DNA of 53,315 bases, from positions 1 to 53,315 of IMG/VR virus record IMGVR_UViG_3300030519_000023; one strand, written 5' to 3'. The DNA is from a virus. Its lineage: Duplodnaviria > Caudoviricetes. The translations under genes were made by a program, and so were the position numbers. This document shows, piece after piece, positions 11,001-27,249 of this stretch. Numbering within the stretch: position 1 is the first letter of the stretch; every line of letters begins with the position of its first letter. Below the pieces are notes generated by a model. It did not search any database, was not told the DNA's origin, and saw nothing but the letters and a program-made list of their open reading frames with translations.

Positions 11001-13483
11001 GACAAGGCCACCTCCCTCTCGCCCAGGGCCGCGCAATCCACCGGCTTGACCATGGCGTCCATAGCTGCGCCCTGGGCGGTGATGACGGCCTCCCCGTCCT
11101 CGTGGCTGATCTGGTAGCTTCCCTCGGGCATCCCAAGGGCGGCTGCCGTCATGACTGCCTTCTCAGGGGTCATCTTGCCCAGAGGGATCTGGTACTCGTT
11201 CAGAGGGGTGGAGTGGAGGGCGGCGATCAGGGCAGCTCTCGCTTCCAGTCGCCCCAGGGCCCCGCCCAGGACCCGACGCGCCTCTTTCAGGGCCTCCACC
11301 TTATTCTTCTGGATCTCTACAGCGGCCGGGATGTCGTGAGCTACTTCCAGGAGTTCCTGGTCACATTGGGCAGCCTTGGCCCGGAGAGCCTGGGCGTCCT
11401 CGGTCACCTGGGGAAGCAAGGTCTCCTGCTCTTGGAGGTGGTGGTGCTCCAGAGCCTCCAGGACGGCTTGCTGGTCCTCGGGGCTGAAGTTCTGCCGAAG
11501 GGCACGGGCGACGACGTGGGCAGCCCCCTCGGGCCCCAGGCACTCAACAACGTCCCGGTCGATCATTCCCTGGCCCAGGGCCGCCAGGCCGACATCGTGC
11601 AGAAGGTCAAAGGCGCCGGCTCCCCGGCTCTGGTGCATTCCCTCCATTTCGCCGGTCTTGAACGGGTCGATGTCGCTCCCCTCGGGGAATCTCTCGCCCA
11701 CCTCCTCCAGGAATCCCTGGACGTGCTGGGTCAGGAGCTGCTCGTGCAGGGACTGGACCAGGGCTTCGTGTTCCTCGGGGGTGCCGACGGCCATCTGGAA
11801 CCCCGGCTCGAAGGTGATCCCCTTCTTGGCTGCCATCTGCTGTTTGTAGGTCGCCCGGAGTGCCTGGCGGGCCCGCAGGAGGTGGGCCAGGGTCTCATTG
11901 GACTCCAGGGATTCCTTCACGGCGTCACGCATGGCGGCGGCCTTCTGTGCCTGGAGGTCTTTAGTCGCCTTGTGAATCTGGATGTTCGCGGCCTGTTCCT
12001 CCGGGCTCTTGGGGCCCGTAGCCTCCTTGGGCGCCTTGCCTTCGGCAGCTTGAATCTCGTTCACGGCAGCCATCAGCTTTTCGCTGGTCATGCCGGCCTT
12101 CTCTGCCCGCTCGGCCAGCTTCTGGTTGTAGCCGGGCCCGGACTTGCCCTGGGTTTCCGAGAGGATGGCGTCCAGGTCCATAGGGGAATCCCCGCCGACC
12201 AAGTTGATCCCGCTGGCTCCCCGGGCCTCGGCGTCCAAGAGAACCTTCTTCTCTGCCTCGGCGACGATCTTCTTGGCCTCGGCCAGCCGGGCCCGGTGCG
12301 CCTCCTTGGCAACCTTGGGGTCGTCCTCGCCCTTGAACAGATCCTCATGGTCGCCGCCCTGGCCACCTGTGGCGGTTCCCAGGACGTCGTTGATGAACTT
12401 GTCCTCGGCCTGCTTGCGCTCCGCCCGAGCCCCGTCAGAGACCTCCCGCTCCTTGGCGAGGTCATCGGGTGACAGGCTGGCCTTCCGCTTCGCCTCGGCC
12501 TCGCGGCGGCCCTTGGCGTTGGCCCTGGACTCCTCCTTGTATTGTGCCGGGTTCTTCAGGCCATGCAGTCGGAGCCCATTCAGTTTTCCCTGGGCGCCAC
12601 CGATGACGCGGGCAGCGCCGTTGCTACCCTGGATCGGCTGGATGAGGAGAGGGTGGCCCTTGGAACCGGGCCCGTCGGGGTGCGCGGTAATCCAGTGGGC
12701 CCCGGCGGGGATGGGGTCTCCGCCCTTGACGATGGTGCGCCAGCCGTCACGCCGTCGCTGGTCCTCGGCGCAATGACAGCAGTTGAGCCCGTCGCCTTGG
12801 TAGTCCGGTGGCTTCGGGCCACCGCACCGGGCCTTGCAACCATCCGGCCTCGGGAAAATCCAGCCGTGCCCAGAATTAGGCATGTCGGGGTCCCAAAGCT
12901 GTAAGCCCTCTGCTTCGCTCTTGGCGATGGTCCGGGTGGCGTTCTCATCTGCCAGCCAGTCCTTGAAGTCGTCGATGGTGTGGGCGGCGATGGAGTGGAA
13001 GCCGTCCCAGCCCTTGCTGTAGTTGGCGAAGTAGGCAGCCTTGGCCTCCGCCTCGGTGTCCCATCCGATCATGACCTTGTGTTCATCGAATTCGCCAGAG
13101 AGCGGATCCACCTGATTGACGATGAAGACCGACTGGCTCTCCGGGTTGGGCCCGACAAAGCAATCCACCCCGTCCCCGTCTGCCCCGAAGGACCGCTTGC
13201 AAAATCCATAATGGTTGGCCATCTTGACCGACCACTTCGTCCCGCAGGAGTCAACCCCGCTTCGGATACTCCCGACGGGATTCTCAATGGCGATGGGGAT
13301 CCCCTGGACGACGATGTGCCCGCGCCGGCCGCCCTCCCGTGGCTCGGCCTTCCCTGCCTGTCGATCCAGATCTGGGGTGGTCAAGGGCTTGATCTTCAGG
13401 GCGATAGTGGGGGTCCAGCCGACGGGAATCAGCCACCCGGTTTCCCCGGATTCGTTATCGGTAAAGGGGATTCCGGCGTTCAT
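8009..13483 (-). CDS. Large polyvalent protein: InPase-like domain, Cys motif, HWIT module and C-terminal SNF2/SF2 helicase
   Basis: IENPVGSIRSG...HYG...GADGDGVDCFVG...FDEHKVMIG (InPase); helicase motifs GAGSGKT, VDEAH, ATGDP, GLNLQ, QRTARIWRLGQ; ATG at 13483 after GAGG. Confidence 0.88.
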   Translation of the reverse strand: MNAGIPFTDNESGETGWLIPVGWTPTIALKIKPLTTPDLDRQAGKAEPREGGRRGHIVVQGIPIAIENPVGSIRSGVDSCGTKWSVKMANHYGFCKRSFGADGDGVDCFVGPNPESQSVFIVNQVDPLSGEFDEHKVMIGWDTEAEAKAAYFANYSKGWDGFHSIAAHTIDDFKDWLADENATRTIAKSEAEGLQLWDPDMPNSGHGWIFPRPDGCKARCGGPKPPDYQGDGLNCCHCAEDQRRRDGWRTIVKGGDPIPAGAHWITAHPDGPGSKGHPLLIQPIQGSNGAARVIGGAQGKLNGLRLHGLKNPAQYKEESRANAKGRREAEAKRKASLSPDDLAKEREVSDGARAERKQAEDKFINDVLGTATGGQGGDHEDLFKGEDDPKVAKEAHRARLAEAKKIVAEAEKKVLLDAEARGASGINLVGGDSPMDLDAILSETQGKSGPGYNQKLAERAEKAGMTSEKLMAAVNEIQAAEGKAPKEATGPKSPEEQAANIQIHKATKDLQAQKAAAMRDAVKESLESNETLAHLLRARQALRATYKQQMAAKKGITFEPGFQMAVGTPEEHEALVQSLHEQLLTQHVQGFLEEVGERFPEGSDIDPFKTGEMEGMHQSRGAGAFDLLHDVGLAALGQGMIDRDVVECLGPEGAAHVVARALRQNFSPEDQQAVLEALEHHHLQEQETLLPQVTEDAQALRAKAAQCDQELLEVAHDIPAAVEIQKNKVEALKEARRVLGGALGRLEARAALIAALHSTPLNEYQIPLGKMTPEKAVMTAAALGMPEGSYQISHEDGEAVITAQGAAMDAMVKPVDCAALGEREVALSLKGGQQDEDNWIPAGFANRLADRYSNPEMEPAEFQRHHDIQDGDDAEAVKGKLQAWMGSRLADGERPEDIVASVYGGAKLDLSPEAQAHWDAAMNEMVPLRVVEKDAKSQPIQEKDKETGKPIEINGKPMLKTRVRAPHEIAADLDPMMQGYMAANPNEAGTTLQGQRVQDDGNFHEALHRALAKDPRLAAAYIPQGELTHEHASAIRDFFYKEHFGGKANSDDAKKWKFDQAIGNLGPEPEKTNAEVQSMNLFAGMSDDDAADAEGAASDKWVEWNNKRQQLESEYHEDATKPTLWDSYIQRMGGTKFAQGAIQDVMRGQLNEAFHDHYHHLTGQKLQMATADISGAQAHLQMTLGDKEAEALAADRKSQQAKLQKKGGGQFGAGKVGDKLKEAKAAQALAKVQDGALFNLNETEEPEPGREEAPAAAWEKPELAPGERYHLGTALENQIRGLMPAASAPFAGRKGSVNVQDGLHMSGKYVQQQRAVKAITQLKRMGLFYGAGSGKTPIMLGSLTTLHQQGKLKKGIIAVPSVVQAQFGAEAIRFIDPSSGFHVHAAPGESYDERLAAYRDPDQQAVVVTHQTLRDDTLKILGDHLGSGPEGAREFLHSASPKDAAASVKEAFIKAGIDFNAMMVDEAHGALDRDGKEDSTWSKVLDAHSYNSEHVVMATGDPLKNDVSEVWSNLNKIDPHKYPPESKDEFMRRYKNDAPLAKKSMAQELARYWFNGRVDPGKECYKSNPSVALTDKQHQAVDQVELASGKLRTGAPDTVKWAKMLAPKSFDGKPEADHQAIAEKVRKAVGTMRESAMNRIINLDPEGGKMAEHVRIAKERIAEGKPVVIFSHNLEAVASIQAAMEKAGIKATSLTGKDSSKDKAAKAARFDSGQADVIVMSDAGATGLNLQHGKCIIHHDIPSTAMVHNQRTARIWRLGQKDNVESITLQADHPWEKNNMERIKRKGVLGEIFQDPNGFQDDSGLAGDLKAVRARAGQANPAAA

Positions 13484-13612
13484 GGGTGCCTCAAAATTCG
13501 ACTTGCAATCCTGCTTGGACGGGGGCATATTTCTGGAGTGCAACAGGGGGGCGGAATATAGCCGGACCAATCCCCAAGTAGGCCCGTCCGAGGCTACCCC
13601 TTTGGCGGGCCA

Positions 13613-14260
13613 TCACTTTGCCTCGGAATCGTTCTGGATTTCGATCACGACGCTCTTGGCTTCAGCCGTCTCCGTTGGCCTTGCCGCTTCCATTTCGTAC
13701 CCGGATACGACCCAGGTCGGAACGGTGTCAGTGGGAAGGGCCGGGTTGTCATAGAAGGGCGATAGGGTTACCTGGTGCTTCCCGCTGGTGGCCCATATTT
13801 GGGGCGTCGTGCTGGGGCGCCGGTTGTCTTTCCCTGGGGGCTCGACCTTCAAGTCTCCACGAACAAGGCATTCCGCCATCCCCCTCATGCAAGCCGCCAA
13901 GTCCTGCCCCCGTTTGGCCCGCTGGTCGATAATATGTTCCAGCCGCTCGTATTCCAGCCCGATTGGGCCAAGTCGCATATGCTTCGTGGTCATGTAGGGC
14001 GGGTGCCCCTTCCCTTTTTGGAGCTGGAGGATGGCGGCATAGGTCGCCTTGACCCGCTGATCCTCAAGCTGCGCGAAGGCGGCCTGATCAACCCACCGGA
14101 CACTGGCCTTAACGGGATGCAATCCGCCCTTCCCGTCATGGCTGAAATGCGCCCGAACCGTGACTGCCCGCTGGGCCTTTTCGATGGGGCGGCCGGAAGT
14201 CACGGCGTTGAAGGCATCCGTCAACAGGTGCCAGAGCAAATACCCACTCGGGGGTTCCAT
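13613..14260 (-). CDS. Putative PBECR (barnase/EndoU/colicin/RelE-like) RNase effector
   Basis: LEHIIDQR...WVVSGYE pattern; RPIEKA site followed by a tag-like segment. Confidence 0.5.
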   Translation of the reverse strand: MEPPSGYLLWHLLTDAFNAVTSGRPIEKAQRAVTVRAHFSHDGKGGLHPVKASVRWVDQAAFAQLEDQRVKATYAAILQLQKGKGHPPYMTTKHMRLGPIGLEYERLEHIIDQRAKRGQDLAACMRGMAECLVRGDLKVEPPGKDNRRPSTTPQIWATSGKHQVTLSPFYDNPALPTDTVPTWVVSGYEMEAARPTETAEAKSVVIEIQNDSEAK

Positions 14261-14805
14261 CAGTCCACCAGGTCGGTCTTGGGGTTCACTTTCTTCTTCT
14301 TGGGCTCGTCCGTCCCGGGCATGGCGATCTCTTTCCCGGGCAGTTTGAAGGCGTTCCCCTTGTGGGGGATGTCGGTGGCCTGGGACGACTCGGTGTCGTA
14401 GCGCGGCTCCTCCATGAGGCCCTGGCGGGTGGCCGTGGAATATGCGTCGGTGCCGAGCTGCCACTTCAGGAACCCATCGGGAAGGGTGCCCACACCGGGG
14501 ACATCGCTGGCGGCCTTGGCGATGGGGCGCTCTCCCTCCGGCGCCGGCCGACCTTCCTCCATCCAGTCCAGGATCCGCCCGGAGATGGCGCGGCCCCGGC
14601 GGCTGTCGCCCTGACTCGACTTGACGATGGTGCGGAGTCGATCCATGGGCAGCCCGTCCATCACGGCCTGATGAATCGCATCGGCAGCCCCGACGCTCTC
14701 GGGCAGCTCCTGGATGGACTTGGTGATGGCGCGGGGCGACTGTGACGCCATGGCCAGGGCCTGGATGGCGGAAAAGAAACGGACTTCGAGGGAATGGTTG
14801 TCCAT
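14260..14805 (-). CDS. Probable internal head protein with three maturation sites
   Basis: RAITKS, RTIVKS and RPIAKA; GGAG RBS. Confidence 0.65.
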   Translation of the reverse strand: MDNHSLEVRFFSAIQALAMASQSPRAITKSIQELPESVGAADAIHQAVMDGLPMDRLRTIVKSSQGDSRRGRAISGRILDWMEEGRPAPEGERPIAKAASDVPGVGTLPDGFLKWQLGTDAYSTATRQGLMEEPRYDTESSQATDIPHKGNAFKLPGKEIAMPGTDEPKKKKVNPKTDLVD

Positions 14806-15434: not shown

Positions 15435-15812
15435 CTAGGTTAAATCATCGTCGATCCATGGCCGAATCCGCCCCTTCGCCGGCTTCGGCGGAGCGAGGCG
15501 TGAACGCTGGAGGCCATTCATGCTGCTCCAGCACCCCATGTACGCATCGTGCCGGTCGTTCTCGATCACACTCCCCTTGAAGTTGGGGTAGTTCAGGGCC
15601 ATGACTTCCCGGGTCAGAGCGATTGCCACCTCCTGTCGGGAAATCAGGGTGCGAAAACGATAGTCGTGATTGGCAGTTTCCGAGACCTTAGCCTTCGGAA
15701 AGACTCGCTCTAGGTCACCCTTAACCCGGCCTCGGACCAGGAGCCGATCCTTGGGATCCCCGGCTGGCGGCTGGACGATAGACAGAAACGCATCATTGAG
15801 AAAAACCCACAC
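15435..15812 (-). CDS. Conserved-type hypothetical protein (MWxF..F.S.V / LVRxR / DY.FR / Y.NFK), separately promoted
   Basis: GTG start with GAGG RBS; motif pattern recalled from a widespread uncharacterised family. Confidence 0.75.
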   Translation of the reverse strand: MWVFLNDAFLSIVQPPAGDPKDRLLVRGRVKGDLERVFPKAKVSETANHDYRFRTLISRQEVAIALTREVMALNYPNFKGSVIENDRHDAYMGCWSSMNGLQRSRLAPPKPAKGRIRPWIDDDLT

Positions 15813-15927: not shown

Positions 15928-17043
15928 TCAAAAATCCATGTCTTGCCAGAATCCAGTGGGTTCCTCGGGGGCGCCCTTGGGGGCCTTCGGCGGCGGGACG
16001 TATTTTGGAACCGGCCGAGGCCCAGCTCCCAGAGCCTCAGCCAGCCCGTGGTCGGTGGCCATGTTGAGGTAGTGGTAGAGGAGAGACCGGGGCACCAGGG
16101 AGACCGCCTGGCTCTCCCAACCGCAATCCGTTGGGGTTCCCCCGACGCGCCTGGCCGTGTAGTACCTGGCCGTCGTGGTGGTCCTCTGGACATCCTCCAA
16201 GAACCCGGTGATCTCCGCCTTCAGTCCGCACTCCTCGAATGCCTCCCGGATCGCGGTGGCCTGGAGGGCGTCGTCCCCGTCGACGTGGCCCTTGGGGAAC
16301 GAGCCCCGGTAGCCTCCGAACTGGTTGGTGGGATGGATAACCCAGACCCGGCCGTCGGGCTCCTCGATCACCAGCCCGGCGGCCGGCGCCTTCCCCTCGG
16401 GGAGGGGGGGCTCCTGAATGGTCGGGTCCTGGCCCTCAACCTCCATCCAGTCCTCGTCCGTCGTCGGGTGGTCGGCCCAGGGCGCCATGGCGACCCCGTT
16501 TAGGGACGCGGGGGCCTTCCCGCCCGGGATCCAGGTTGCGACGGCACTGGGGTCCTCCCAGGTGTCCGCCCCGGTGGCCTTGGACGGATCCTTGATATAG
16601 GCGTCATTCCCCTTCTCGTCCAGCTTGGGGTGCTTCTTGGCCCCAGGGTTGTGCTTGAGGAAATAGGCCAGTTGTTCCTCGGGGGTGTATTTCGGCTTCT
16701 CCGGGGCTCCTTCCGGCTTCGCCCAGGACCACTTCCCGGACGGGGCCTGGCCGGCGGAGTGCGAGGGGGCCTGGCCGGTCTTGCCGGGGATCTTGAACGG
16801 GGCCGACGTGACCGGCTTCGATGCCTGGGTGCCGAAGTGGTTGTTCTTCCACGGCTGGTAGCCGATCTTGTCGTCCGGGTTGACGTGCTTTGGCGGCGGG
16901 GCCGGCGCCATGTTGACCGGCTTCAGGTTCTTGGGGGCGGCTTTGGATGGCGGGGCCTGGGCGGCGGCCCGGGAGTCCTCATGCTCGGGGATCCAGACCC
17001 GCTTGCCGTTGAATTCGCGGAAGAAACCCTTGATCTCCCTCAT
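15928..17043 (-). CDS. Nudix hydrolase with N-terminal tag and Pro/Lys-rich linker
   Basis: Nudix box PKGHVDGDDALQATAIREAFEECGL; ATG at 17043. Confidence 0.88.
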   Translation of the reverse strand: MREIKGFFREFNGKRVWIPEHEDSRAAAQAPPSKAAPKNLKPVNMAPAPPPKHVNPDDKIGYQPWKNNHFGTQASKPVTSAPFKIPGKTGQAPSHSAGQAPSGKWSWAKPEGAPEKPKYTPEEQLAYFLKHNPGAKKHPKLDEKGNDAYIKDPSKATGADTWEDPSAVATWIPGGKAPASLNGVAMAPWADHPTTDEDWMEVEGQDPTIQEPPLPEGKAPAAGLVIEEPDGRVWVIHPTNQFGGYRGSFPKGHVDGDDALQATAIREAFEECGLKAEITGFLEDVQRTTTTARYYTARRVGGTPTDCGWESQAVSLVPRSLLYHYLNMATDHGLAEALGAGPRPVPKYVPPPKAPKGAPEEPTGFWQDMDF

Positions 17044-17504
17044 TACCCCTCCCCGGTCAGAAGGAATTTGATGGCACTCTTGACGGCCCGCTGGAGCATG
17101 AAGCCAACCCATTCCGGGTCCTCGTCTCCACCATGGAGATCATTCGCCGACTTCACGACCTGGGTAGCCAAGAACAGGAAGAATGCCTGGCCCGGATCCT
17201 GACTGGGTTCCTCGAATTTGACCGACCGCTGGGCCCTTACGTGAGCCCCCAGACGGTCGGGAGTATTCCATTCGGTGGCGTAGAACGTTGGGTCCTTCCC
17301 CATGAAGGCGTCACCCAAGACCGTAGCCTTCAAGCGAATGGCAGCCATGGCATCGTCCCTGGTTGCCACTCCTTTCCCGAAGGAGTCGTAATCCTTTAGG
17401 ACATCGGCCACGAATTTCTGAACGATGGCGCCCACGTCGCCCAGGTCATTGAGGGCAACCTTCCCTTTTGGCTGGTGGTCGAAGTTCAGCGAGTTTCCGA
17501 TCAT
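17043..17504 (-). CDS. Helical hypothetical protein coupled to the kinase-ART gene (candidate immunity or partner)
   Basis: Overlaps both neighbours; no enzyme motif; no tag. Confidence 0.65.
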   Translation of the reverse strand: MIGNSLNFDHQPKGKVALNDLGDVGAIVQKFVADVLKDYDSFGKGVATRDDAMAAIRLKATVLGDAFMGKDPTFYATEWNTPDRLGAHVRAQRSVKFEEPSQDPGQAFFLFLATQVVKSANDLHGGDEDPEWVGFMLQRAVKSAIKFLLTGEG

Positions 17505-20251
17505 ACCGTCACCCCTTTCTTAAACTGGTCAACGGAATCAACGAAGGTCGGGTCAGGAGGGAGCATGAGCAATTCGAGTTTCATCGTTTTCCCGTCAGAA
17601 GCCTTACCCTTGCTTAATATCATAAACCGCTGCCCGGGGAGGGTCGTGATCTCCTGTTCGCTGGACATGCTATGGGATCCGTAGGAATCCATGGCCTTGG
17701 CTCCTTCAGCATAGTGAATCTCCAGGAGGAGGTCGCTCCCGAAGTGCTTATGGCTGCCCCAGTCCTCGCCCTTGGAACAACACATAGAATCGGTATTCTG
17801 GAAAAGCAATCCCGGCTCCGCCTGTTGAAGCTGCTTGGCCATGGTAGAGGGAATGTCCATCCAGCGCCAGAGACGGGCCCCTTCGTGCTTCGGAATGGCG
17901 TATTCGTAGCTCTCTTTGATTGCCAATTTGATGTCAGTCCCGCCATAAGAAACGTCATTCCCTTTGAAGTGGTGATTAATCGAACCGGTGGATTGGACGT
18001 TGCTGATGTAGGACTTCAGGTTCTTCGGCATCTTCTCGTATTGGGAATAACCCAGTTTCGCCTCAGCCGGAGTAACGTTGCTTCCGGCGTTCTTGGGTCT
18101 GAAGTCTTCTGGGTTTGCCACGCTGCCAAGCAGCATGAAGTATCCGAGAACCTCGGAGCTATCAATGTTATCGGTGTTCTTACCGAACGGTTTGGATGGG
18201 AAGGCATCTGAAAGGCCAGAAACATCCTCTGCCTGAGCAAGGGAGTAGGTCTTCAGCTTCTCAGAACCAGGGTTTGCTACCACATCCATGTAGGCAACGA
18301 GACCGGACCAATACTGTTTGACATGAGTGCTGGGATGCTGTTCGATGGGGATCAGCTTGGATTCCCCAGTCCCCTTGTCGACTAGATGGACCTGTAAGTT
18401 CTTCAACCGAACCAGGTCCCCCTTCATGGCCGCCCGGTGGACCTCGGCGGCGGCCTCCTGATTCGCTTCGTTGACCTTTTGGGTTGCAGAAAGTCCCTTC
18501 CCTTGGCCGTTCCAGTCGAGGAAGTCGGGCGGCTTGGGAATCTGAGCTTTATCCACCGGGAGCCTCTTTGGGTCAGGCTTGGGGGGATGAGCGATAGCCT
18601 CGGCCTCCGGGAACTGCTTGGCGAGGTAGTTTTTCCGGGCGATCAGCTTGGCCGACAGGGCGGCCTTTTGGTTGTCGTCTCCGGGGCCAAAAAGCTGGAC
18701 TGCCTTGGCGATAACGTCGTCTGGCATTTCCAGTACCGGAACCATGCTCTGGTTCATCTCCTCCTGAGTCATGGAGCCGAAGACGGAGGCAGACTGGGGA
18801 TTCTTGACCGCATCCTTCAGTGTGTGGATCTCGGGGACAGTGTTCCCGAAAGCTGGCCCCTTCTGGCCGCCCTGTGCCCGGAAGTCCAGAGCCCCGCCGG
18901 GGTCGATCCGCACAGCCTTTCCGTCGGGACCGACCAGCAGGTTGTCATAACCCAGGCCGACCACATCCCAATTCGCCAGCCACGCGTCGGCGCCGAACCC
19001 TTCCTTGACCCCGGCTTTTGCCCCCAGAGCTTCCCCGTCGCCGACCTTTGCCAGGCCCTCTTGGAAAGCAGAGGCGATCCCAAGCTTTCCGTCCTTCTGG
19101 ACCAGCTTCACCTTGGGGGCACCGATGCCCATCAGGTCGTAGAACTTGGCGGCCAGCATTTCACTCTTGGCCTGATCCTCGCTCCCTGGGAACTTGATAT
19201 ACCACTTCTTGCCGAAGGCGTCCTCATACAGGCCACCCGGGTTCGATCCCTTCTGTGGGCCAATCTGCTTGAATGGGAACGCCTTGGGAAGCGGGGCTAC
19301 CTTGGGAACCACCGTGGCCGGTCCCTTCTTCTCGACCAGCTCCCACCGATGGTTAGCGTTCAGGACGTAGGTCTGCCCGTTCTCCAGCTTGGTATCGCCG
19401 ATCTTGGGCCCCGTCTGGTCGCCCATCCCCTTGAACTTGAAGGCATCCTTCCACGACTTCTTGCCCCACAAACCAGGGACCGCCGTGAAGGTCATATCCT
19501 TGCCGTCCGCCTTGAGCTTGATCCCGCCGTCGACGGCCGGGTTGTTGACGACAGAGTAGGTGTCGCCCCCGTACTCGAATTGCATTCCCTCTTTAACCTG
19601 GGAGAATGCGGGGTGCGACCCGATAGTCGGGGTCTTGTCCGCCTTGGGCTTGGTTGGAGCCTTCCCGACGGCCACCTGGGCTTCCAAGTGAGCCGCCAGG
19701 GCCAGGTATTCATCCTTGGGCACCAGGTAACTCTGCTGCTTCTTTTTGTATCCGGCTGGGTGCATTGCCGCAATGGCTTTGGCTACGGCCGCCTTCATCG
19801 GGGTGCCGTCGTCGTTCTTCTTGCTGACCATGAAGAACTTTCCGCTGGGCGTCGAGAGGTGGACGTAGAACCCGCCGAGGTTGGCAGAATGCCCCTTGCC
19901 GATGGCCTGGAGCTGATCCACAAGGCTGGGCTCGGCCGCCTGGGGCTCGGTCGTTGCTGGAACGGGATCCGGCTCCGGCTGCGCCTCGTCACCCCCAAAC
20001 ATCTTTTCAAAGTCCCGGTCCACGTCGAACGAAACGGCTCCATGCGGGGGGGCGGCTGCCTCTCGGGGGGGCTCGGTGCCCTTGGGTGCTATGGTGGTGG
20101 CACCGGGTTCCTTCGGCGACTCCTGGGCGTCGGGATACATCCTCGCAAAATCATCGTCCGTGGTTCCCTTGACCTCGTAATCCCGCCCCTTGACATGGAC
20201 GAGCTGGCCGTGGACGGTGCGGTAGAAGTCTTTCCCGTGATGGAGGGCCAT
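17501..20251 (-). CDS. Effector: PI3/PI4K- or HipA-like kinase domain plus C-terminal R-S-E ADP-ribosyltransferase
   Basis: Kinase: GPQKGSNPGG, WYIK, SEMLAAKFY, WLANWDVVGLGYDNL, RIDPGG. ART: RLWRW...SMCCS...SEQEITTLPGQRF. Confidence 0.75.
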   Translation of the reverse strand: MALHHGKDFYRTVHGQLVHVKGRDYEVKGTTDDDFARMYPDAQESPKEPGATTIAPKGTEPPREAAAPPHGAVSFDVDRDFEKMFGGDEAQPEPDPVPATTEPQAAEPSLVDQLQAIGKGHSANLGGFYVHLSTPSGKFFMVSKKNDDGTPMKAAVAKAIAAMHPAGYKKKQQSYLVPKDEYLALAAHLEAQVAVGKAPTKPKADKTPTIGSHPAFSQVKEGMQFEYGGDTYSVVNNPAVDGGIKLKADGKDMTFTAVPGLWGKKSWKDAFKFKGMGDQTGPKIGDTKLENGQTYVLNANHRWELVEKKGPATVVPKVAPLPKAFPFKQIGPQKGSNPGGLYEDAFGKKWYIKFPGSEDQAKSEMLAAKFYDLMGIGAPKVKLVQKDGKLGIASAFQEGLAKVGDGEALGAKAGVKEGFGADAWLANWDVVGLGYDNLLVGPDGKAVRIDPGGALDFRAQGGQKGPAFGNTVPEIHTLKDAVKNPQSASVFGSMTQEEMNQSMVPVLEMPDDVIAKAVQLFGPGDDNQKAALSAKLIARKNYLAKQFPEAEAIAHPPKPDPKRLPVDKAQIPKPPDFLDWNGQGKGLSATQKVNEANQEAAAEVHRAAMKGDLVRLKNLQVHLVDKGTGESKLIPIEQHPSTHVKQYWSGLVAYMDVVANPGSEKLKTYSLAQAEDVSGLSDAFPSKPFGKNTDNIDSSEVLGYFMLLGSVANPEDFRPKNAGSNVTPAEAKLGYSQYEKMPKNLKSYISNVQSTGSINHHFKGNDVSYGGTDIKLAIKESYEYAIPKHEGARLWRWMDIPSTMAKQLQQAEPGLLFQNTDSMCCSKGEDWGSHKHFGSDLLLEIHYAEGAKAMDSYGSHSMSSEQEITTLPGQRFMILSKGKASDGKTMKLELLMLPPDPTFVDSVDQFKKGVTV

Positions 20252-20254
20252 GGT

Positions 20255-22885
20255 CTACTCCATCTCTTTCAGTTTGGTCATGGCCTTTTTGGCGTAGCCG
20301 GCCCATTTCTGGCCGAAGTCGCCCCAGGACGGCCCTTCCTCGGATTTATTCGGGAGCCCCTGCTTTGCCTTGTGCCCGGCGACGAGCGCCAGGTGCTTGG
20401 CGTGTTGGACGTAGCTCTCCAGCTCTTTCTTGCTGGGGGTGTAGCCGGAGTCCTTGGTGATGGCGAGGTGGGTATCGCTCAATCCGTCCATGATGGGTTT
20501 GGTCGCGGCATCCCAGTCGTGTTCGTGCCACTTCTCCGAGGGAGGCTTCGGCATGAACGGATCGGGCTTGACTGCGACCTTCGGCGTCTGGCCAAGAGAA
20601 TCAGCCATCTTCCCGTGATATTCGGCCAGGGCGGCATGAGCCTTGGCGGCTGCGGTATGGCTGCTCTGGAGGTGCGCCGGCCCAGGCTTGATGGGGGTAT
20701 CGGTCAGGTTGAAGGAATTGCCAAGTTGGGCGTGATACACCCCAGCCTTCCCATGGGCTCCGGCCGCCTTCAGGTGTGATTCGGCATCTCCCATGTTCGC
20801 GGCATTGCCGGAGGCATACTGGGCAGCCTCGGAATAGGCGTGAGCATCACTGGCATGTCCGGTGGCCTCGGGGTGATGCGCCGTGATCTTTCCGGCGAGG
20901 TCCGAGATAGCATGGGCCAAGTCGCTGGCTCCGCCCGGGGTTGGATTATCTTTGAACCCGGCCCCGGCACCCTTCACGACGCCCCTGGCCTCCTGCACCT
21001 GGGGGTGGGCTTCTTCCCAGTCCAACACGTCGGTATCGGGCATGACCTGGGCGTTCTTGGTTCCCCACTCCTTGGCCGCCTTCTTGATGCTCTCGATGAC
21101 TGCGTTCCCAGAGACGCCCAGGTCTTTGGTGTGCATCTTGCCGTCGGCGAATTCATACCAGACCTTCCCGCCCGGATAGGAAAGGCCCGCCTGGAGGTGG
21201 TCCTTGGCGTTGAAGTAGATCCGATGCTTGGCTCCCTTGGTCCACTCCTTGCCGACCCCGGCCAGCTCGGCGACGGTGGGCATGGATCCCCCGCCCTGCT
21301 CCTCCGGGTGCTGCTCGATGGCCAGCTCCCAGTGGTGATTTTCGTTGAGGACGAACTGCTTCCCGTTCTCGGTCTTGGTATCGCCGACCTTCGGGCCGTC
21401 CTCGTCCGGGACCAGGGCGGCAGCATTGGCCGAATGCCAGCCCATTTGGTAGCCCTTCATGGCGTCGATGTTGCTCCCGACCGGGGCGCCAGGCTTGAGC
21501 TGGGAGTCCATGAAATCTTTGTTCTCGCTTGGGATCACAGAGAGCCCCTTGGCGTGAGCCTCCTGGCCCATCTCGTAGGCCGACTTGGGTTGGGCCGCAA
21601 GGTATGCGGCATCCCCGGCCGCATCCTCAACCTCGCCTTCGGCCTGTTCGATGGCGAATCCTACATGCTTTGCCTTGGCGGCAAGGTGCTGGGCGGCCTT
21701 CTCTTGGTGGTAGTCCTTCAGTTTCTGGCTGATCGGAAGGTCGGCGTCCAGGATGGCCTGGTGAGAATTGGCAGCCGCATCATGGGCAGCTACGGCCGCG
21801 CCATGCTCCGTGGAATTGTGCTTGGAACTCACGGCATGGAACGTGTCGGCTTCCTCGGATTGAGCCGAGGCCAGCCCCGCTCCCTTATGGTATTTGGCCA
21901 TCTGGTTGTGATAGGCGGCATTCGAGAAGTGTTCCTTCTGTGCGTCCCCTTCGCTACCAATCGCCACCTTGGCCTGAGCCACGGCGGCATCCTGATGGGC
22001 CTTTACGGCGGAATCGTGGGTCTGGACATCATCCGTCGGGGAATAGCTGTAGGCGTCGGCCTCCTCGCTGGCTTCCTTGGCTGCTAGGGCATCCTCGGAG
22101 ATGCCGGTCACCTTCACCGGCTCCGGCACGGGGGCCTCCTTGGGCACCTCTGCGCCATGGAGGACCGCCATGACCTTGGCCGCCACCTCGCCGCCGGCCG
22201 CGCCATGCCCGAAGAAGAAATGTGGAAAGGCCGAATCGTTCCCGTGGTGGACCGCTCCGCCCTGCTTGGGCTCCATGGTCTCGCCGGTCACCTTGTAGAT
22301 GGCCTCCTTGATGGCGTTGGCGTCGGCCTTGTTCGCCGCCCGGAGATACCAACCCTTGTTCTTGTTGACGCCCATGGCGGTGCGCTCCGCCAGGGACGCC
22401 ACCTTGGCCCCTTCGGGAGCATGGCCCTCGGTCCACTTCGTCTTGCCCTCGTGGACTGCGTAGTGGCCGACCTTCTTCCCCGCCTTGGCTGGGGGCTGGG
22501 CGGCATGAACCGCGTCATCGTAGGCTGCCACCGGGACCAGCTTGCCGTTGGACTCTCGGAAGGTGGCGTCATGGTGGGACTTGCCGATGGGCCTCTGTTC
22601 CAGGATCGTTCCGTTCGCCATGTGCTTCACTGGCCTGGTCGCCATGGTCGCGGCCAGGGGGCCCGACATGGCTCCCCCCATCGAACCGGCGCATTTGCAA
22701 ACCAGACTGGAGCCCTCGTCCGGGTCCATCCCGTCGTCCACGGCGTCATCGAACGCCTTCAGGAGGTCCCGGCCTTCGTCCACGTCCTCGGGCTTCCGGC
22801 AGAAGTTCTTGGGAAGGCATTTCGCCTTATAGTAGGCACCGGCTTTCATGGCCAGAGCATTGGCATGGTCCTTCTTGATGGCCAC
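20255..22885 (-). CDS. Large His/Ala-repeat internal virion protein
   Basis: GTG with GAGGAGG RBS; RDLLKA and RPIGKS sites; tag; AHxxAAxxH repeats; modules shared with neighbouring genes. Confidence 0.7.
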   Translation of the reverse strand: MAIKKDHANALAMKAGAYYKAKCLPKNFCRKPEDVDEGRDLLKAFDDAVDDGMDPDEGSSLVCKCAGSMGGAMSGPLAATMATRPVKHMANGTILEQRPIGKSHHDATFRESNGKLVPVAAYDDAVHAAQPPAKAGKKVGHYAVHEGKTKWTEGHAPEGAKVASLAERTAMGVNKNKGWYLRAANKADANAIKEAIYKVTGETMEPKQGGAVHHGNDSAFPHFFFGHGAAGGEVAAKVMAVLHGAEVPKEAPVPEPVKVTGISEDALAAKEASEEADAYSYSPTDDVQTHDSAVKAHQDAAVAQAKVAIGSEGDAQKEHFSNAAYHNQMAKYHKGAGLASAQSEEADTFHAVSSKHNSTEHGAAVAAHDAAANSHQAILDADLPISQKLKDYHQEKAAQHLAAKAKHVGFAIEQAEGEVEDAAGDAAYLAAQPKSAYEMGQEAHAKGLSVIPSENKDFMDSQLKPGAPVGSNIDAMKGYQMGWHSANAAALVPDEDGPKVGDTKTENGKQFVLNENHHWELAIEQHPEEQGGGSMPTVAELAGVGKEWTKGAKHRIYFNAKDHLQAGLSYPGGKVWYEFADGKMHTKDLGVSGNAVIESIKKAAKEWGTKNAQVMPDTDVLDWEEAHPQVQEARGVVKGAGAGFKDNPTPGGASDLAHAISDLAGKITAHHPEATGHASDAHAYSEAAQYASGNAANMGDAESHLKAAGAHGKAGVYHAQLGNSFNLTDTPIKPGPAHLQSSHTAAAKAHAALAEYHGKMADSLGQTPKVAVKPDPFMPKPPSEKWHEHDWDAATKPIMDGLSDTHLAITKDSGYTPSKKELESYVQHAKHLALVAGHKAKQGLPNKSEEGPSWGDFGQKWAGYAKKAMTKLKEME

Positions 22886-22895: not shown

Positions 22896-23879
22896 CTACT
22901 TGTCCAGGTTCAACAGGGACTGCCGGCGAAGCTCCAGGGCGGCCAGGGCGATCTTGTCGCCGCCGACCCGGGACTTCTGCTTTTCCAACTGGCCCAGCCG
23001 GGCGTCGACGTAGGACTTCATCATCTGGCGGCTGTTGGCCTCGTCCTCCTGGTCCCCTTGGGCCTTGGCAACTCCCCGGTCTGCCTTGGAATATTTGGCC
23101 AGGGCTGCATTCATCTCGGACGCTGGGACCTTGGCATCACCAGCTTTACCCTTGTGGTAGCGGCTGGCCTCATGGTGGGCCAGCCATGCCTTCTGGTGCC
23201 CCTCGTTGCCCTCCGTGGGGGGATGGACCTTCCCGTCCATGTCCTCGTACCCATCGCTATCCTCGGTCGCCTGGTTATGGCTCATTTCGGCAGCCAGGTG
23301 AAGCGAATGGGCGATGTAATGGTCCTTCTGGCTCCCGGTACGGTCTGCCTCCTGCGATGCGCGGTGGGCCGTCTGTGAGTAGCCAAGCATTTCTTTTGCG
23401 TCACGCCCCTTGACGGCTTCGGCGGCAGCGATAGCTTTCCCGCTGGGCGACTCGTCGGTGACCTTCTCCGGCGCCTTCTCTTTGCCTTCAGCCTTGGTCT
23501 CCGGCTGGACTTCCTTGTCTACCGGCTTATCCAGCTCGGTCTTGGCCGGGGCGGATTCGCTCCCTGCCTTCAGATGGGCATGGATCGCCGTGGCGTCCTG
23601 GAGGCTGGACACATGATGGTGGTCATAGGCGCCGACCCGGCCGAAGTGGCTGGCCCCGGATCTTCGCTTCTCTGTCTTGATGTCCAGGTGCTTGGCGGCG
23701 GCCTCGATCTGTTTTCCGTCTTCGGCGTCGGATGCCCGGAGGTAGTGGGTTCCTGACTTGTGCTTGCCGATGGCGGTTCGTTCGTGCAGCTCCGCCGGGC
23801 GCCCCTGCCCTTCGCCACCCTCCCCCACGTAGACAGTCTTGCCATTGACGACGCGATAGTAGCTCTTGTGGTGGCTCAT
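22896..23879 (-). CDS. Tagged internal virion protein, partial paralog of 20255-22885
   Basis: AGGAG RBS and ATG at 23879; MSHHKSYYRVVNGKTVYV; shared LxERTAxG...YLRA module. Confidence 0.7.
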   Translation of the reverse strand: MSHHKSYYRVVNGKTVYVGEGGEGQGRPAELHERTAIGKHKSGTHYLRASDAEDGKQIEAAAKHLDIKTEKRRSGASHFGRVGAYDHHHVSSLQDATAIHAHLKAGSESAPAKTELDKPVDKEVQPETKAEGKEKAPEKVTDESPSGKAIAAAEAVKGRDAKEMLGYSQTAHRASQEADRTGSQKDHYIAHSLHLAAEMSHNQATEDSDGYEDMDGKVHPPTEGNEGHQKAWLAHHEASRYHKGKAGDAKVPASEMNAALAKYSKADRGVAKAQGDQEDEANSRQMMKSYVDARLGQLEKQKSRVGGDKIALAALELRRQSLLNLDK

Positions 23880-24005
23880 CGGATACTCCTGAATCCCGAT
23901 TGGACCCCGAGCGGAGGGCTTCATCCGTTCCATACCCAGTGCTACCAGCCACCTATGGCGTTGCCCATAGGACTTTAGGGTGCCCTTTACCTTGACTCTC
24001 CAGGC

Positions 24006-24866
24006 ATGGGCACCTCCGTTCTTACTCCCGGCCTGGAGACTCGCGGAAGCGGGGGGCACGGAGTCTGCCTACAGTTCGAGCGTTCCGTCTTCAAGGCCCA
24101 GGCCGAAGTTGAGGGTGGCCAGCGGGTCGTCTACCTCGAAGCCAGCACTGAAATCCGGGACATGCAGGGCGACCGGATCCTGCTCTCTGCCCTCGAAGCG
24201 TCCATTCCCTACTTCCTGAAATATGGCCGGCTCGACCTGGACCATGCCTCCGTTCTGGGGCAGATTCGGGGCGTCAAGGTCAACCCCTACGCTTTTGAAA
24301 TCGGGCGTCCTCTGGATGTGCGACTGCGTGATGGCTCCATCTGGGTCAAGGCCGCCATCTATACGGCCGGAGAGGGAAACCGGTTCACTGAAGCCGCCGA
24401 CCTTTTCTGGGACTCCCTTCAATCGAAGCCTCCCGTCATCTGGTATCCCAGCGTGGCCGGCGATGTCTATGCCGAAGAAACCACCTCCGAAGGTGGCCTC
24501 CCCACTCAGGAAGTGCGCGGCATCCGGTGGCACTCCATCGGCCTGTCCCGGACCCCGGTCAATACCGCTGTCGGTTCTGTCACCACCATGCCGGTTCGCG
24601 CCTTCGCCAAAGCATTCTCCGGCCTGGCCGACCTGAAGGACACCCTGGGCTCCCTGGCCCCCGCGCTGCCCTCTCGCGGCCTCGCCACGGCGGCCGGGAA
24701 GGTCCCTGGCGCCGATGACCCCATCTATATCCGCCTCGCCATGGACGCCCTCCTGGAGGCCACGGAGGCGGGTGGCCTGGATGGCTACCTAACCCTCGCC
24801 ACCGAGCGGGGAGTGCCCGCCGATGTGGCCATGGCCCTTCTCGTCGTCCTTCTCTCTCGTCGCTGA
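24006..24866 (+). CDS. Prohead (maturation) protease
   Basis: YLEASTEIRDMQGDRI..., LDLDH, EIGRP, PSVAG; lies upstream of scaffold and capsid genes. Confidence 0.82.
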   Translation: MGTSVLTPGLETRGSGGHGVCLQFERSVFKAQAEVEGGQRVVYLEASTEIRDMQGDRILLSALEASIPYFLKYGRLDLDHASVLGQIRGVKVNPYAFEIGRPLDVRLRDGSIWVKAAIYTAGEGNRFTEAADLFWDSLQSKPPVIWYPSVAGDVYAEETTSEGGLPTQEVRGIRWHSIGLSRTPVNTAVGSVTTMPVRAFAKAFSGLADLKDTLGSLAPALPSRGLATAAGKVPGADDPIYIRLAMDALLEATEAGGLDGYLTLATERGVPADVAMALLVVLLSRR

Positions 24867-24882
24867 ACCAAGGAGCCAATTC

Positions 24883-25749
24883 ATGAGTGCCCTTTCCGAT
24901 CTGCAAACCGCCGTGCGCTCCATCCTCAAGGGGATCAAGGAGGATCCCGCCAAGAAGGTCGGCGGCAAGGCTCCCGTCCCGACCAATCCCGGCGATCCCG
25001 ATGAACTCCAGCCCGATCCCCGCGTCGGCGATGCCTCGCCCACGAAGGCCGATGCCACCAAGGCCAAGGCTGATGCGGAGCCTGAAACCGACGGCGAAGC
25101 GGATCCTGAAGCGGATCCCGAAGGCGAGGACGGCGAAGTCAACCCTCCCGCAACCACCAAGGAAGAAGAAGGCGGCGAAGGCGATACCACTACCACGGGG
25201 GAGGAGGGCGACGACCCTGAGAATCCCCAGCGCCCCGGTGCCAAACGTCCCGTCGCCAAGGGCTTCGATGAATTCGGCAACCGCGACCTGGAGCCTGGCG
25301 AAGTCCGGTCCCTCCTAAAGGCCCTGGAATACGGCGTCACGCCCCCCATGACCCAGGACAAGCTCCTGCACGAGGGCGAAAACCTCAAGGCCGTCCTGGA
25401 CGACATCCTCAAGTTCCTGACCCATGCCGCCCAGAAGATGGAAGGCCACGACGTCATCATGGGCGACATTTTCGCGGAGCTGGACCGCCTCAAGAAGGGA
25501 TCCGATGTCCACGACCGGGAGATTGCCAAGGCCCTGAGCCTTTATGGCGATCCCACCAAGGCCCCCGCCGAAGCCCCCCGCGCAATCTCCAAGTCCCTGG
25601 TCCTCCCCTCCACTCCTCCCGCTGCCCCGGCTCTGCCCGGAGCCGACGTGGCGAACGAAATCTACTCCGCCCTCAAGGCCGGAAAGATGACCAACGCCCA
25701 GGCGATGCAGCGGTGCCGGGAGACACGGGCCGCCGCGTCGGTCCAGTAG
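24883..25749 (+). CDS. Capsid scaffolding protein
   Basis: Acidic low-complexity N-terminal half plus coiled coil; five RxPhixK[SAG] sites; lies between protease and capsid genes. Confidence 0.7.
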   Translation: MSALSDLQTAVRSILKGIKEDPAKKVGGKAPVPTNPGDPDELQPDPRVGDASPTKADATKAKADAEPETDGEADPEADPEGEDGEVNPPATTKEEEGGEGDTTTTGEEGDDPENPQRPGAKRPVAKGFDEFGNRDLEPGEVRSLLKALEYGVTPPMTQDKLLHEGENLKAVLDDILKFLTHAAQKMEGHDVIMGDIFAELDRLKKGSDVHDREIAKALSLYGDPTKAPAEAPRAISKSLVLPSTPPAAPALPGADVANEIYSALKAGKMTNAQAMQRCRETRAAASVQ

Positions 25750-25800
25750 TGCCGCCTTTCAACCTCAACCCCTTTTCGGCCTAAAGGCCAGGAGTTACCG

Positions 25801-27249
25801 ATGGACGTTCTTTCGATCCTCGGCCAGTTGGCCGAAACTTCCGCTGATCCCCGGATCCGCACCCTGGTCAAGTCCCTGACCTCCACCCAGGCGGGCGTGA
25901 ACCTCGCGGCCCTGACCGGCGGCGGCGCAACGCGGGTGGAAGCCCTGGAGCCGGAACTGGCGACCGCCACCGTCCAGAATCCCCACTTCGTGCTGTTCAA
26001 CCTCCTGTTCCCCAACCGACACACGAGCTGGAGCCTGATCGACCAGCAGGTTGTCCAGGACGGCATCGGCGGATACCCCGGCAGCGCGGTCTCCAACGAA
26101 ACCGGCTCCAACCTCAACCAGCGCAACGGCGCCTACCACCGGGTCATCACCGAGCTGAAGGTGCTGGCTGAATTCGGCGGCGTCACCGTTCCCACCGCCA
26201 TGCAGGGCGCCCTTCAGCAGGCGGCCGGCGCGGCTGACTTCAACTCGGCCGAGCAGGAAATCTTCTCCGCCCTGTCCCGGGTCCTCCAGACCGCCGAGTG
26301 GGAGCTGATTTTCGGCGACCCCACCATGAGCCCCCTGGAATTCCAGGGCATCATCCCCGGTCTCCTGGCCAACGCCCCCCAGAACGTGCTGAACCTGGGC
26401 GGAATCGCCCTGAACACCGGCAGTCAGGTCGCCCCCCTCGCGGCCCGCATCTCCGGCTTCGGCTCCTGGGGCTCCCCCGACGCCCTGATCGTTTCCCCGG
26501 CTTGCAAGGCGGACTTCGACGGCCACCTGGAAGCGGGATACCGGGTCAACCTGGATGCCAACGTTCCCAGCACCACCCTGGGCGCGATGGTCAAGTCCAT
26601 CAAGTATAACGGCCTGGGCATCGGCAACGGCGTCCTGGATCTCTACCCCCATGTGTTCCTGGACGAGAACATGCGGCAGCCGGTGGAGAACTTCGCCGCG
26701 ACTGAAATCTCCGGCAACGCCCCGGCCTCCATGACCGGTGTCGCCTCCGGCGCGACCGGCTCCATCCCCGCCGGCACCTATGCCTACCGGGTGGAAGCCG
26801 CCGGTCCCGGCTTCGTGTCGTCCTCGGTCCTCGTGACTGGCTCGACCGTCGTCGTCGCCGCGACCAACCAGGTGGCCCTGACCATCACCCAGTCCTCGGG
26901 TGCGGCCGAGAGCTACTACAACGTCTACCGCTCCAGCAAGAACGGCAGCACCGCTTCCAATATGTGCCGGTTCATCGGGCGCGTGGCCAAGACCGGCGCA
27001 ACCACCGTGTTCACCGACACCAACGCCACCATTCCCGGCACTTCCCAGGCCATCATGCTGACCTCGGCCCCGCAGTATGACGCTCTGCGTCTGGTGCAGA
27101 TGGCGCCCCCCAGCAAGATCCCCCTCGCCATGACCACCCTCCAGTATCAGTTCGCGGTCATGTATCTGGCTTGCCTCCGGCTCTCCCTGCCGAAGAAGCA
27201 TGCCCTGATCACCAACATCCTGCCCTCCAACGCCACCTGGCTGCCCTGA
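25801..27249 (+). CDS. Major capsid protein (A511/SPO1/K-like, with Ig-like insertion)
   Basis: LVKS-LT...GGGATRVEALE N-terminus; GTYAYRVEA...YYNVYRS insertion domain; strong codon bias; followed by a terminator. Confidence 0.88.
   Translation: MDVLSILGQLAETSADPRIRTLVKSLTSTQAGVNLAALTGGGATRVEALEPELATATVQNPHFVLFNLLFPNRHTSWSLIDQQVVQDGIGGYPGSAVSNETGSNLNQRNGAYHRVITELKVLAEFGGVTVPTAMQGALQQAAGAADFNSAEQEIFSALSRVLQTAEWELIFGDPTMSPLEFQGIIPGLLANAPQNVLNLGGIALNTGSQVAPLAARISGFGSWGSPDALIVSPACKADFDGHLEAGYRVNLDANVPSTTLGAMVKSIKYNGLGIGNGVLDLYPHVFLDENMRQPVENFAATEISGNAPASMTGVASGATGSIPAGTYAYRVEAAGPGFVSSSVLVTGSTVVVAATNQVALTITQSSGAAESYYNVYRSSKNGSTASNMCRFIGRVAKTGATTVFTDTNATIPGTSQAIMLTSAPQYDALRLVQMAPPSKIPLAMTTLQYQFAVMYLACLRLSLPKKHALITNILPSNATWLP

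Follow-up and report, generated by a model that had tools for sequence, protein, structure and literature searches.

Does one short peptide motif, found in the capsid protein, scaffold and protease of an uncultivated phage and again in large proteins encoded on the opposite strand, mark the places where a prohead protease cuts? The question is raised by IMG/VR record IMGVR_UViG_3300030519_000023, a linear fragment of 53,315 bp (hereafter the window) that is estimated to hold 60% of one phage genome and has a G+C content of 58-66%. The window is a fragment of an uncultivated myovirus with a genome of about 90 kb. Our analysis of its sequence indicates that the motif probably defines a prohead-protease cleavage programme with the code R-x-[ILVFM]-x-K/[SAG], where the slash marks the predicted cut after the P1 Lys, and that its substrates include cargo packaged in the head. 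We hold the cleavage part of this reading with high confidence, and the packaging of cargo in the head with moderate confidence.

A motif concentrated in head and divergent-arm genes

The window is organized in two divergent arms. The minus-strand arm spans ~35 to ~23,900, and the plus-strand arm, from 24,006, carries the genes for the protease, the scaffold and the major capsid protein, baseplate genes, the sheath and a protein at the tape-measure position. Wherever a protease gene and a capsid gene were both found in a locus, the order protease (24006-24866), scaffold (24883-25749), capsid (25801-27249) is unchanged. Among cultured phages, 86-95 kb myoviruses (Pseudomonas Dolphis, Bordetella PHB04, Morganella Mecenats66) have capsid proteins that share only ~31% identity with that of the window, and its kinship with those of Thermus phages and Herelleviridae is remoter; no near-identical cultured-phage DNA was present in the collection searched.

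All six frames were scanned by regular expression for the hexamers, and the strict motif R-x-[LIVF]-x-K-[SAG] was counted in genes called by codon-usage score. The 16 hexamers listed in the original prediction were all recovered in the proteins to which it had assigned them, and the enrichment in head and cargo proteins that it led us to expect was borne out. The 6,337 residues of called genes between 8009 and 27249 contain 19 matches, whereas 500 composition-preserving shuffles gave a mean of 0.86 and a maximum of 5, none reaching 19. The other 9,753 residues contain 2 matches against a shuffle mean of 1.05, a count reached by 136 of the 500 shuffles. Control motifs stayed low: 0 matches (0.87 expected) with K and R swapped, 2 (0.92 expected) for the reversed motif, 2 (0.66 expected) with an acidic or amide P1', and 0 (0.59 expected) with a hydrophobic P1'. 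The register control R[LIVF]..K[SAG] gave 3 matches against 0.86, and 34 of 500 shuffles reached that number.

Protein by protein (2000 shuffles, M also allowed at P3), the scaffold has 5 sites against 0.045 expected and the 181-aa protein of the divergent arm 3 against 0.053, neither count being reached in any shuffle. The same holds for the 876-aa protein (3 against 0.046; 0/2000), while the protease has 2 against 0.044 (3/2000) and the capsid protein 1 against 0.022 (43/2000). Beyond the earlier list, the scan returned two sites close to the C-terminal end of the 22896-23879 product (RGVAKA and RQMMKS), RGVVKG at residue 634 of the 876-aa protein, and RVFPKA in 15435-15812. The flanks of the 20 sites have no common sequence outside P5-P1', indicating that the sites are not copies of one longer module. 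Across seven related stretches, matches fall almost solely in the protease, scaffold, capsid and divergent-arm genes, homologous or at the same position, with two tail-side genes having one match each. Relatives at 29-84% identity have these sites too, with diverging flanks.

Predicted sites in the protease, scaffold and capsid protein

One motif is common to the capsid leader, to multiple scaffold sites and to both ends of the protease core. The features concerned are the following.

24006..24866, plus strand: prohead protease, 286 aa (fold, invariant residues, profile match to the A511 protease)
nt 24081-24098, plus strand: protease N-site RSVFKA, predicted self-cut K30/A31
nt 24597-24614, plus strand: protease C-site RAFAKA, predicted self-cut K202/A203
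24883..25749, plus strand: scaffold, 288 aa, five sites (motif count, conservation)
24916-24933, plus strand: scaffold RSILKG (regular expression)
25246-25263, plus strand: scaffold RPVAKG (regular expression)
25306-25323, plus strand: scaffold RSLLKA (regular expression)
25516-25533, plus strand: scaffold REIAKA (regular expression)
25579-25596, plus strand: scaffold RAISKS (regular expression)
25801..27249, plus strand: major capsid protein, 482 aa (phrog_752, E 6e-55)
nt 25858-25875, plus strand: capsid RTLVKS, predicted cut K24/S25

Judged by its predicted structure, the protease is a Ser/His enzyme with the fold of T4 gp21 and the herpesvirus assemblins. In Foldseek searches its AlphaFold2 (AF2) model retrieved T4 gp21 (5jbl) at ranks 1-3 (E 6e-4 to 2e-3, template modelling score to target 0.53-0.57), followed by herpesvirus assemblins. 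The model has a mean predicted local distance difference test score (pLDDT) of 81.5, a confident core at residues 34-196 and a C-terminal helical bundle, while segments 1-31 and 198-208 fall below 50, placing both of the enzyme's own sites in flexible stretches that border the core. The earlier proposal that RSVFKA and RAFAKA bracket the protease core agrees with this model. D77, D79, H80, S149 and K202 are invariant in 54/54 aligned homologs, K30 and A31 nearly so, and the catalytic pair is probably His80 with Ser149. A profile alignment (hhalign) with the A511 protease (91.6%, E 8e-7) superimposes the N-site, the His, the Ser and the C-site, which reads FMK/S in A511. None of the 120 homologs listed, of 131 in all, carries a precomputed Pfam domain.

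The claim that the capsid protein of Listeria phage A511 is cut at an N-terminal Lys-Ser bond is confirmed at the level of the RefSeq record, which annotates the mature protein from residue 24 (Ser24), after QEDALK. Measured to the GA(L/T)R.E motif, the A511 cut K23/S24 and the predicted cut K24/S25 of the window lie at the same distance within one residue. In A511 and in Dolphis we also observed that the protease segment immediately after the C-site closely mimics the capsid sequence immediately after its own cut: FMK/SWTTGHGTTPDTQVNAGALRRESL in the protease and ALK/SFTTGYGITPDTQTDAGALRREFL in the capsid protein of A511 (5443-6237 and 7293-8696 of its stretch), with the Dolphis pair at 8005-8913 and 9594-11084 of its stretch. 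The clade of the window does not show this mimicry.

Conservation was assessed in three related viral contigs, extended for alignment, whose capsid proteins are 84, 71 and 64% identical to that of the window. All three keep the capsid site and both protease sites. In the scaffold, the motif persists at four of five sites in 3/3 relatives and at the fifth in 2/3, even inside a divergent acidic linker. The scaffold start was corrected from 24823 to 24883.

How widely is this code used? In the cultured relatives and scored viral loci, scaffolds of ~210 aa have six to nine [LIVMF]-x-K-[SAG] sites, and there is one capsid-leader site as well as a site at both protease-core ends, all without Arg at P5. 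Such Phi-x-K-[SAG] scaffold repeats (Phi, hydrophobic) occur in Dolphis, PHB04, Mecenats66 and Thermus Cumys. Among 70 distant viral loci, P5 Arg was found in 0/507 scaffold sites and 0/76 capsid-leader sites; the commonest P5 residue in relatives is Glu (131/489 sites), Arg being absent. When metagenome loci were added and loci were classed by the presence of Arg at the protease's own C-terminal site, 154 rows collapsed to 121 unique patterns. The nine unique loci of the Arg class have P5 Arg at 29/43 scaffold sites and 8/8 capsid sites, compared with 1/621 and 0/97 in the 112 unique other loci. The protease's own sites behave likewise, with P5 Arg at both in 25/54 aligned proteins, at neither in 27/54 and at only one in 2/54. 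On a tree of the core sequences only, a single change accounts for the Arg state (support 71/84; 66% of bootstrap trees). From these comparisons, Phi-x-K/small is the predicted ancestral code of the whole phage family, to which one clade added P5 Arg. The original claim that the Arg extends specificity is thereby supported as a clade-specific change.

The residues that distinguish the two protease groups include three gained acidic ones in the hairpin that follows the catalytic Ser: D153 (Asp or Glu in 19/25 of the Arg group versus Ser, Ala or Lys), E157 (Glu or Asp in 24/25 versus Lys, Arg or Gly) and E169 (Glu in 22/25 versus Val, Thr or Ile). It is an attractive inference that this charge swap reads the P5 Arg.

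Putative leaders, hairpin and helicase junction in the divergent arm

In the divergent arm, motif-bearing sites occur at the ends of putative N-terminal leaders, near one C-terminus and at an internal domain junction. The relevant features are listed from the head genes outwards.

22896..23879, minus strand: 327-aa protein (longest open reading frame to 24059), hairpin and ~100-aa carrier domain at its start
23061-23078, minus strand: RGVAKA, C-terminal site of the 327-aa protein
23013-23030, minus strand: RQMMKS, aligned with RAIQKS and RPMQKA in two of three homologs, before a conserved 39-aa tail
20255..22885, minus strand: 876-aa protein, putative N-terminal propeptide followed directly by hairpin and carrier domain
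22754-22771, minus strand: RDLLKA, predicted cut K43/A44, kept in one of two homologs
22577-22594, minus strand: RPIGKS, predicted cut K102/S103, kept in both homologs
17501..20251, minus strand: 916-aa protein, cleavage motif absent, hairpin at residues 5-21, straight after Met
15928..17043, minus strand: NUDIX-domain protein (Pfam NUDIX, E 7e-13), cleavage motif absent, hairpin at residues 4-21, straight after Met
23861, 22564, 20227 and 17025, minus strand: the four hairpins (alignment)
14260..14805, minus strand: 181-aa protein, three sites in its N-terminal 97 aa (motif count, conservation)
14716-14733, minus strand: RAITKS of the 181-aa protein
14617-14634, minus strand: RTIVKS of the 181-aa protein
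14512-14529, minus strand: RPIAKA of the 181-aa protein
13613..14260, minus strand: 215-aa variable 'slot' protein, conserved 28-aa leader MEPPSGYLLWHLLTDAF...GRPIEK/A
nt 14174-14191, minus strand: RPIEKA of the slot protein, residues 24-29
8009..13570, minus strand: polyvalent protein, 1853 aa from the first start (a start at 13528 is also possible) (Pfam, alignment)
nt 12917-12934, minus strand: RTIAKS of the polyvalent protein, kept in 3/3 homologs
nt 12722-12739, minus strand: RTIVKG of the polyvalent protein (regular expression)

Predicted N-terminal leaders ending in the motif are found in the 876-aa, 181-aa and slot proteins, and the large helicases of relatives start with what may be a mini-propeptide. 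Two homologs of the 181-aa protein, at 64% and 34% identity, retain its three sites. For the slot protein, whose start was corrected to the ATG at 14260, two relatives have same-slot proteins with N-termini homologous to the 28-aa leader but with divergent bodies, a pattern characteristic of swappable cargo that has a removable leader. The original prediction had called this gene PBECR-like. That label now stands only as a lead: the protein had no match in Pfam, PBECR included, at E<=1, and the resemblance comes from language-model look-alikes in ESM-Atlas clusters (PBECR3/2/1 or MuF_C, 0.85-0.89). More generally, the 916-, 876-, 153- and 181-aa, slot and 125-aa proteins had no Pfam match at E<=1, the protein of 327 aa (387 aa in its longest frame) had a single sub-threshold one (NAGPA, E 0.028), and PHROGs returned no match for these uncharacterized arm proteins.

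A second element accompanies the predicted cuts. The 327-aa and 876-aa proteins, like several proteins of relatives, have a carrier domain of ~100 aa (23535-23897 and 22136-22504, minus strand) whose AF2 model has a pLDDT of 83.8; against the PDB, a profile search gave 0 matches at E<=1 and Foldseek none below E 0.1. Elsewhere this domain is fused to InPase, NT5C or WGR domains. The domain opens with a hairpin, H-x-K-x-[YF]-[YF]-R-x-x-N-G-K-x-V-x-V. In the 327-aa, 916-aa and NUDIX proteins, as in homologs of these, the hairpin lies 2-6 residues after the Met, and otherwise 2-6 residues after a predicted cut: RPIGK/SHHDATFRESNGK in the window, and RSLLK/AHVKGHTR, REILK/AHVKSHYR, EPIMK/AHVAAHTR and RAVEK/AQVGAYTR in relatives. 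In the 876-aa protein, the hairpin SHHDATFRESNGKLVPV starts at the predicted new N-terminus. This position at natural or predicted N-termini supports real cuts at K/[SA]. Alignment of the 916-aa and NUDIX hairpins by hhalign is weak (E ~0.01 over 17-18 residues). The distribution of the hairpin suggests that the motif-less arm proteins belong to the same class as the predicted cleaved ones, and the 17-aa hairpin itself may be a head-loading or ejection signal. Another match in the 876-aa protein, RAANKA, was rejected as a site, as it lies inside the conserved YLRA motif of the carrier domain.

The polyvalent protein, encoded near the head genes, combines an InPase domain (residues 83-206; PF18823, 6e-47), RTIAKS (213-218), a 60-aa Cys-rich insert, RTIVKG (278-283) and an SF2/SNF2 helicase body (283-1853; Helicase_C, 5e-14, and SNF2). 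Among PHROGs, the InPase domain has its match in a family named 'minor head protein'. The alignment with the helicase of PHB04, a stand-alone protein of 1,518 aa, covers residues 287-1839 and enters the PHB04 sequence at its residue 12. The polyvalent protein can also be aligned with the Mecenats66 and Thermus Cumys helicases (33% over ~1,200 aa for Cumys). In all three phages the helicase gene lies within a head module, a short way upstream of the protease gene. These helicases start with MKPILFLK/AS... or MKRLMIK/AS..., followed directly by the conserved IPxGAxWITVHP. Of 80 viral loci, 40 have the helicase, 33 of them unique, and 33/33 show hydrophobic-x-K-[SAG] ~2-12 aa before IPxGAxWITVHP. 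The site is kept whether the helicase starts there, with the site ~8 residues from the start in stand-alone forms, or follows 200-650 fused residues, indicating a conserved mature N-terminus that has become an internal junction in the window. Pfam searches of the whole protein, and of residues 219-1340 at E<=1, found no peptidase domain; the middle region gave sub-threshold matches only at E<=1 (HD 0.078, RQC 0.11, MIER1_3_C 0.16). The Cys-rich insert (C-x3-C ... CC-x-C; residues 219-277, 12740-12916, minus strand) lies between the two motifs and is absent from 3/3 homologs. It would be freed as a small, possibly zinc-binding peptide.

Published work on related proteins bears on the fate of this one. 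In the accessible text of a 2026 preprint on Thermus phage Lalka27a, a 1,715-aa 'large virionic helicase' encoded among structural genes is reported from purified virions and presumed to be injected (10.64898/2026.04.20.719267). According to the portion of Iyer et al. 2017 (PMC5512222) available, InPase-bearing polyvalent proteins are predicted to be virion-packaged and processing by an embedded metallopeptidase is proposed, a domain not present in every polyvalent protein. The same text notes a frequent linkage of InPase with NUDIX domains (PMC5512222). In the window, the NUDIX protein (15928-17043, minus strand) shares its arm with the InPase domain of the 8009-13570 protein (minus strand), which suggests a shared nucleotide-directed function of injected proteins.

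Further observations concern the host and the rest of the fragment. Some carrier-domain proteins sit on contigs of 331-363 kb, two of the matches being named Acidobacteria or Holophaga, and distant protease homologs are named Burkholderiaceae or Gammaproteobacteria. These names hint at an Acidobacteriota host for the clade of the window and at prophage copies. An endolysin-like paralogous pair lies on opposite arms (1592-2086, minus strand, and 44366-44872, plus strand; both phrog_315, E ~1e-34). The gene at the tape-measure position (41960-43840, plus strand) lies in a stretch with a G+C fraction of 0.58, compared with ~0.64 in adjoining stretches, and its product matched no PHROG family. No tRNA genes were found in the window.

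Rival readings and comparison with known prohead proteases

On the cleavage reading, the protease would act inside the assembled prohead, cutting after Lys and freeing its own core (31-202) from both flanks. The capsid protein would lose 24 residues, the scaffold would be chopped into six pieces able to exit the head, and the divergent-arm proteins would lose N-terminal leaders of 28 to ~100 aa, some being cut several times. The InPase domain and, in this phage, the small Cys-rich peptide would be split from the large helicase. The trimmed proteins would remain in the head and enter the host with the DNA. The Arg at P5, a requirement or a strong preference, would possibly be read, in a putative S5 pocket, by E157, D153 and E169.

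Several observations weigh against this reading. The motif was defined post hoc, after the sites had been inspected. The register control R..[LIVF]K[SAG] is enriched too (10 against 0.86), a consequence of the hydrophobic P2 that many of these same sites have. The polyvalent protein, with 2 matches against 0.386 expected (125/2000), is not significant by count alone. Some matches are unconserved, namely RGVVKG (not kept in the two homologs of the 876-aa protein aligned), RAANKA, RQAGKA and RAAMKG, and RDLLKA is missing from one homolog of the 876-aa protein. RELIKA (first codon 42239), which the original prediction had noted in the tape measure, is indeed present in the 626-aa protein at that position, but its homologs have RDLIKT or RACRKA; we rejected it as a cleavage site and treat it as chance, about one chance match being expected outside the head region. 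Five arm genes (916-aa, 153-aa, NUDIX, DUF2793, 125-aa) have no conserved site. The protease matched no Pfam family at E<=0.01, and its matches to PHROG 'head maturation protease' families are weak (3e-5 and 2.6e-4). The virion report concerns Lalka27a, while the helicase aligned here is that of the related Thermus phage Cumys. Finally, 14/43 Phi-x-K-small sites in scaffolds of the Arg class lack the Arg, so that Arg may be a preference rather than a requirement, and the single origin of the Arg state makes the enzyme-substrate covariation essentially one event and not repeated co-evolution.

Could the arm proteins be something other than packaged cargo? The capsid protein, scaffold and protease might be cut at their sites while the arm-protein copies of the motif serve otherwise or outside the head. 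The site-less arm genes fit such a division, as do the DUF2793 arm gene (14823-15344), which resembles tail-fibre proteins, and the motif count of the polyvalent protein, which is not significant by itself. We nevertheless consider it unlikely. The arm sites keep their positions, at N-terminal leaders and at the junction with the helicase, in fused and unfused forms alike, and the large helicase genes of PHB04, Mecenats66 and Cumys are inside head modules. Packaging also finds external parallels in the helicase reported, in the accessible text, from virions of the distant relative Lalka27a, and in the InPase domain, which matches the 'minor head protein' PHROG and belongs to proteins predicted to be virion-packaged in the text available (PMC5512222). 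The earlier description of the divergent genes as head cargo has indirect support, from the helicase homology and the partly accessible Lalka27a report, for an arm in which five genes have no conserved site; their description as polyproteins applies to one true polyprotein only.

The motif might alternatively be an uncut docking or assembly signal, binding for example the scaffold, the portal or the protease, and its frequent occurrence in a predicted helical or amphipathic context, with hydrophobic P3 and P2, would suit that role. This is quite improbable in our judgement: the homologous A511 capsid position is annotated as cut, the sites bracket the protease core as do the self-processing sites of SPN3US gp245 (accessible text of PMC10052503), and in stand-alone helicases the site is ~8 residues from the start. 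A small P1' and five spaced copies in a scaffold that must exit the head likewise fit cleavage. Chance, compositional bias or a functionless duplicated peptide module would account for a post hoc motif and for the few unconserved matches, but is very improbable given that 0/500 composition-preserving shuffles reach the observed count, that the flanks of 20 sites share nothing beyond P5-P1', and that relatives at 29-84% identity have the same sites.

A bolder extension of the cleavage reading is possible but doubtful. One lineage would have re-specified its protease by a charge swap, P5 changing from mostly acidic or neutral to Arg, and the N-terminal hairpin would be a real head-loading or ejection signal. 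Position 157, Lys, Arg or Gly in relatives, would have become Glu in the window, with D153 and E169 gained too, and the change would have been matched at more than 15 substrate sites distributed over the capsid protein, scaffold, protease and cargo. The hairpin would need a free N-terminus, with proteins either beginning with it or being cut to expose it.

If correct, the cleavage reading provides a testable map for a widespread ~90-kb myovirus family known mostly from metagenomes (131 protease homologs), predicting the mature ends of the capsid protein, scaffold, protease and injected proteins. It also suggests that polyvalent 'weapon' proteins can be dismantled by the head protease and not only by an embedded peptidase. 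The clade-wide P5 switch would represent a natural experiment in the joint change of specificity of a protease and all its substrates, and the short leaders and the hairpin could serve to tag foreign proteins for loading into phage heads. We found no published Lys-type code for this phage family and no proposal that a prohead protease dismantles polyvalent proteins in the literature covered, which excluded subscription journals; the accessible text of the Mecenats66 paper contains neither virion proteomics nor cleavage data.

How does this programme compare with known systems? The T4 prohead protease gp21 cuts (L/I)-x-Glu sites, acting on the scaffold core and on the capsid-targeting sequences of internal proteins, and its own core is bracketed by self-processing sites. 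The window resembles T4 in the protease fold and, as predicted, in the trimming of the protease ends, the removal of a capsid leader, the dicing of the scaffold and the presence of cargo with short N-terminal leaders ending in the cleavage motif. It differs from T4 in having Lys and not Glu at P1, a motif five positions long with P5 Arg, no Pfam-detectable sequence similarity between the proteases, and a 1,850-aa polyvalent helicase among its cargo.

In the jumbo phages phiKZ and SPN3US the motif letters are AXE/SXE/GXE. For SPN3US gp245, 14 sites in nine substrates were measured by mass spectrometry; the accessible text describes multiply-cut propeptides, a C-terminal self-cut, the processing of many ejection proteins and a small-residue-x-Glu motif at P3-P1, and also mentions the roles of T4 propeptides (PMC10052503). 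Long N-terminal propeptides cut several times and a self-removed C-terminal protease segment are features shared, by prediction, with the window, whereas the sites were measured there and are predicted here, the motif is another, and the genome of the window is ~90 kb and not jumbo-sized. A511 and Herelleviridae are closer in sequence, with a homologous capsid protein (phrog_752), a homologous protease and an equivalent cut position, but without Arg at P5 (QEDALK/S), and the A511 scaffold sites resemble (T/E)-S/E-K/S.

In the comparison with the large virionic helicase (Lvh) of Lalka27a and with packaged anti-restriction proteins of the P1 DarB type, the shared feature is a large SF2-helicase protein whose gene lies among head genes; no processing site is reported in the accessible Lalka27a text, and the protein of the window has an extra N-terminal InPase domain. 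The polyvalent proteins described in PMC5512222, as far as its accessible text goes, share with the window a multidomain InPase and helicase protein encoded beside head genes and predicted to be packaged, but an embedded metallopeptidase is proposed there, whereas the junction in the window bears the prohead-protease motif. Taken together, these comparisons indicate that the predicted logic of the programme matches that of T4 and of phiKZ/SPN3US, while its recognition sequence is different: Lys at P1, a hydrophobic residue at P3 and Arg at P5.

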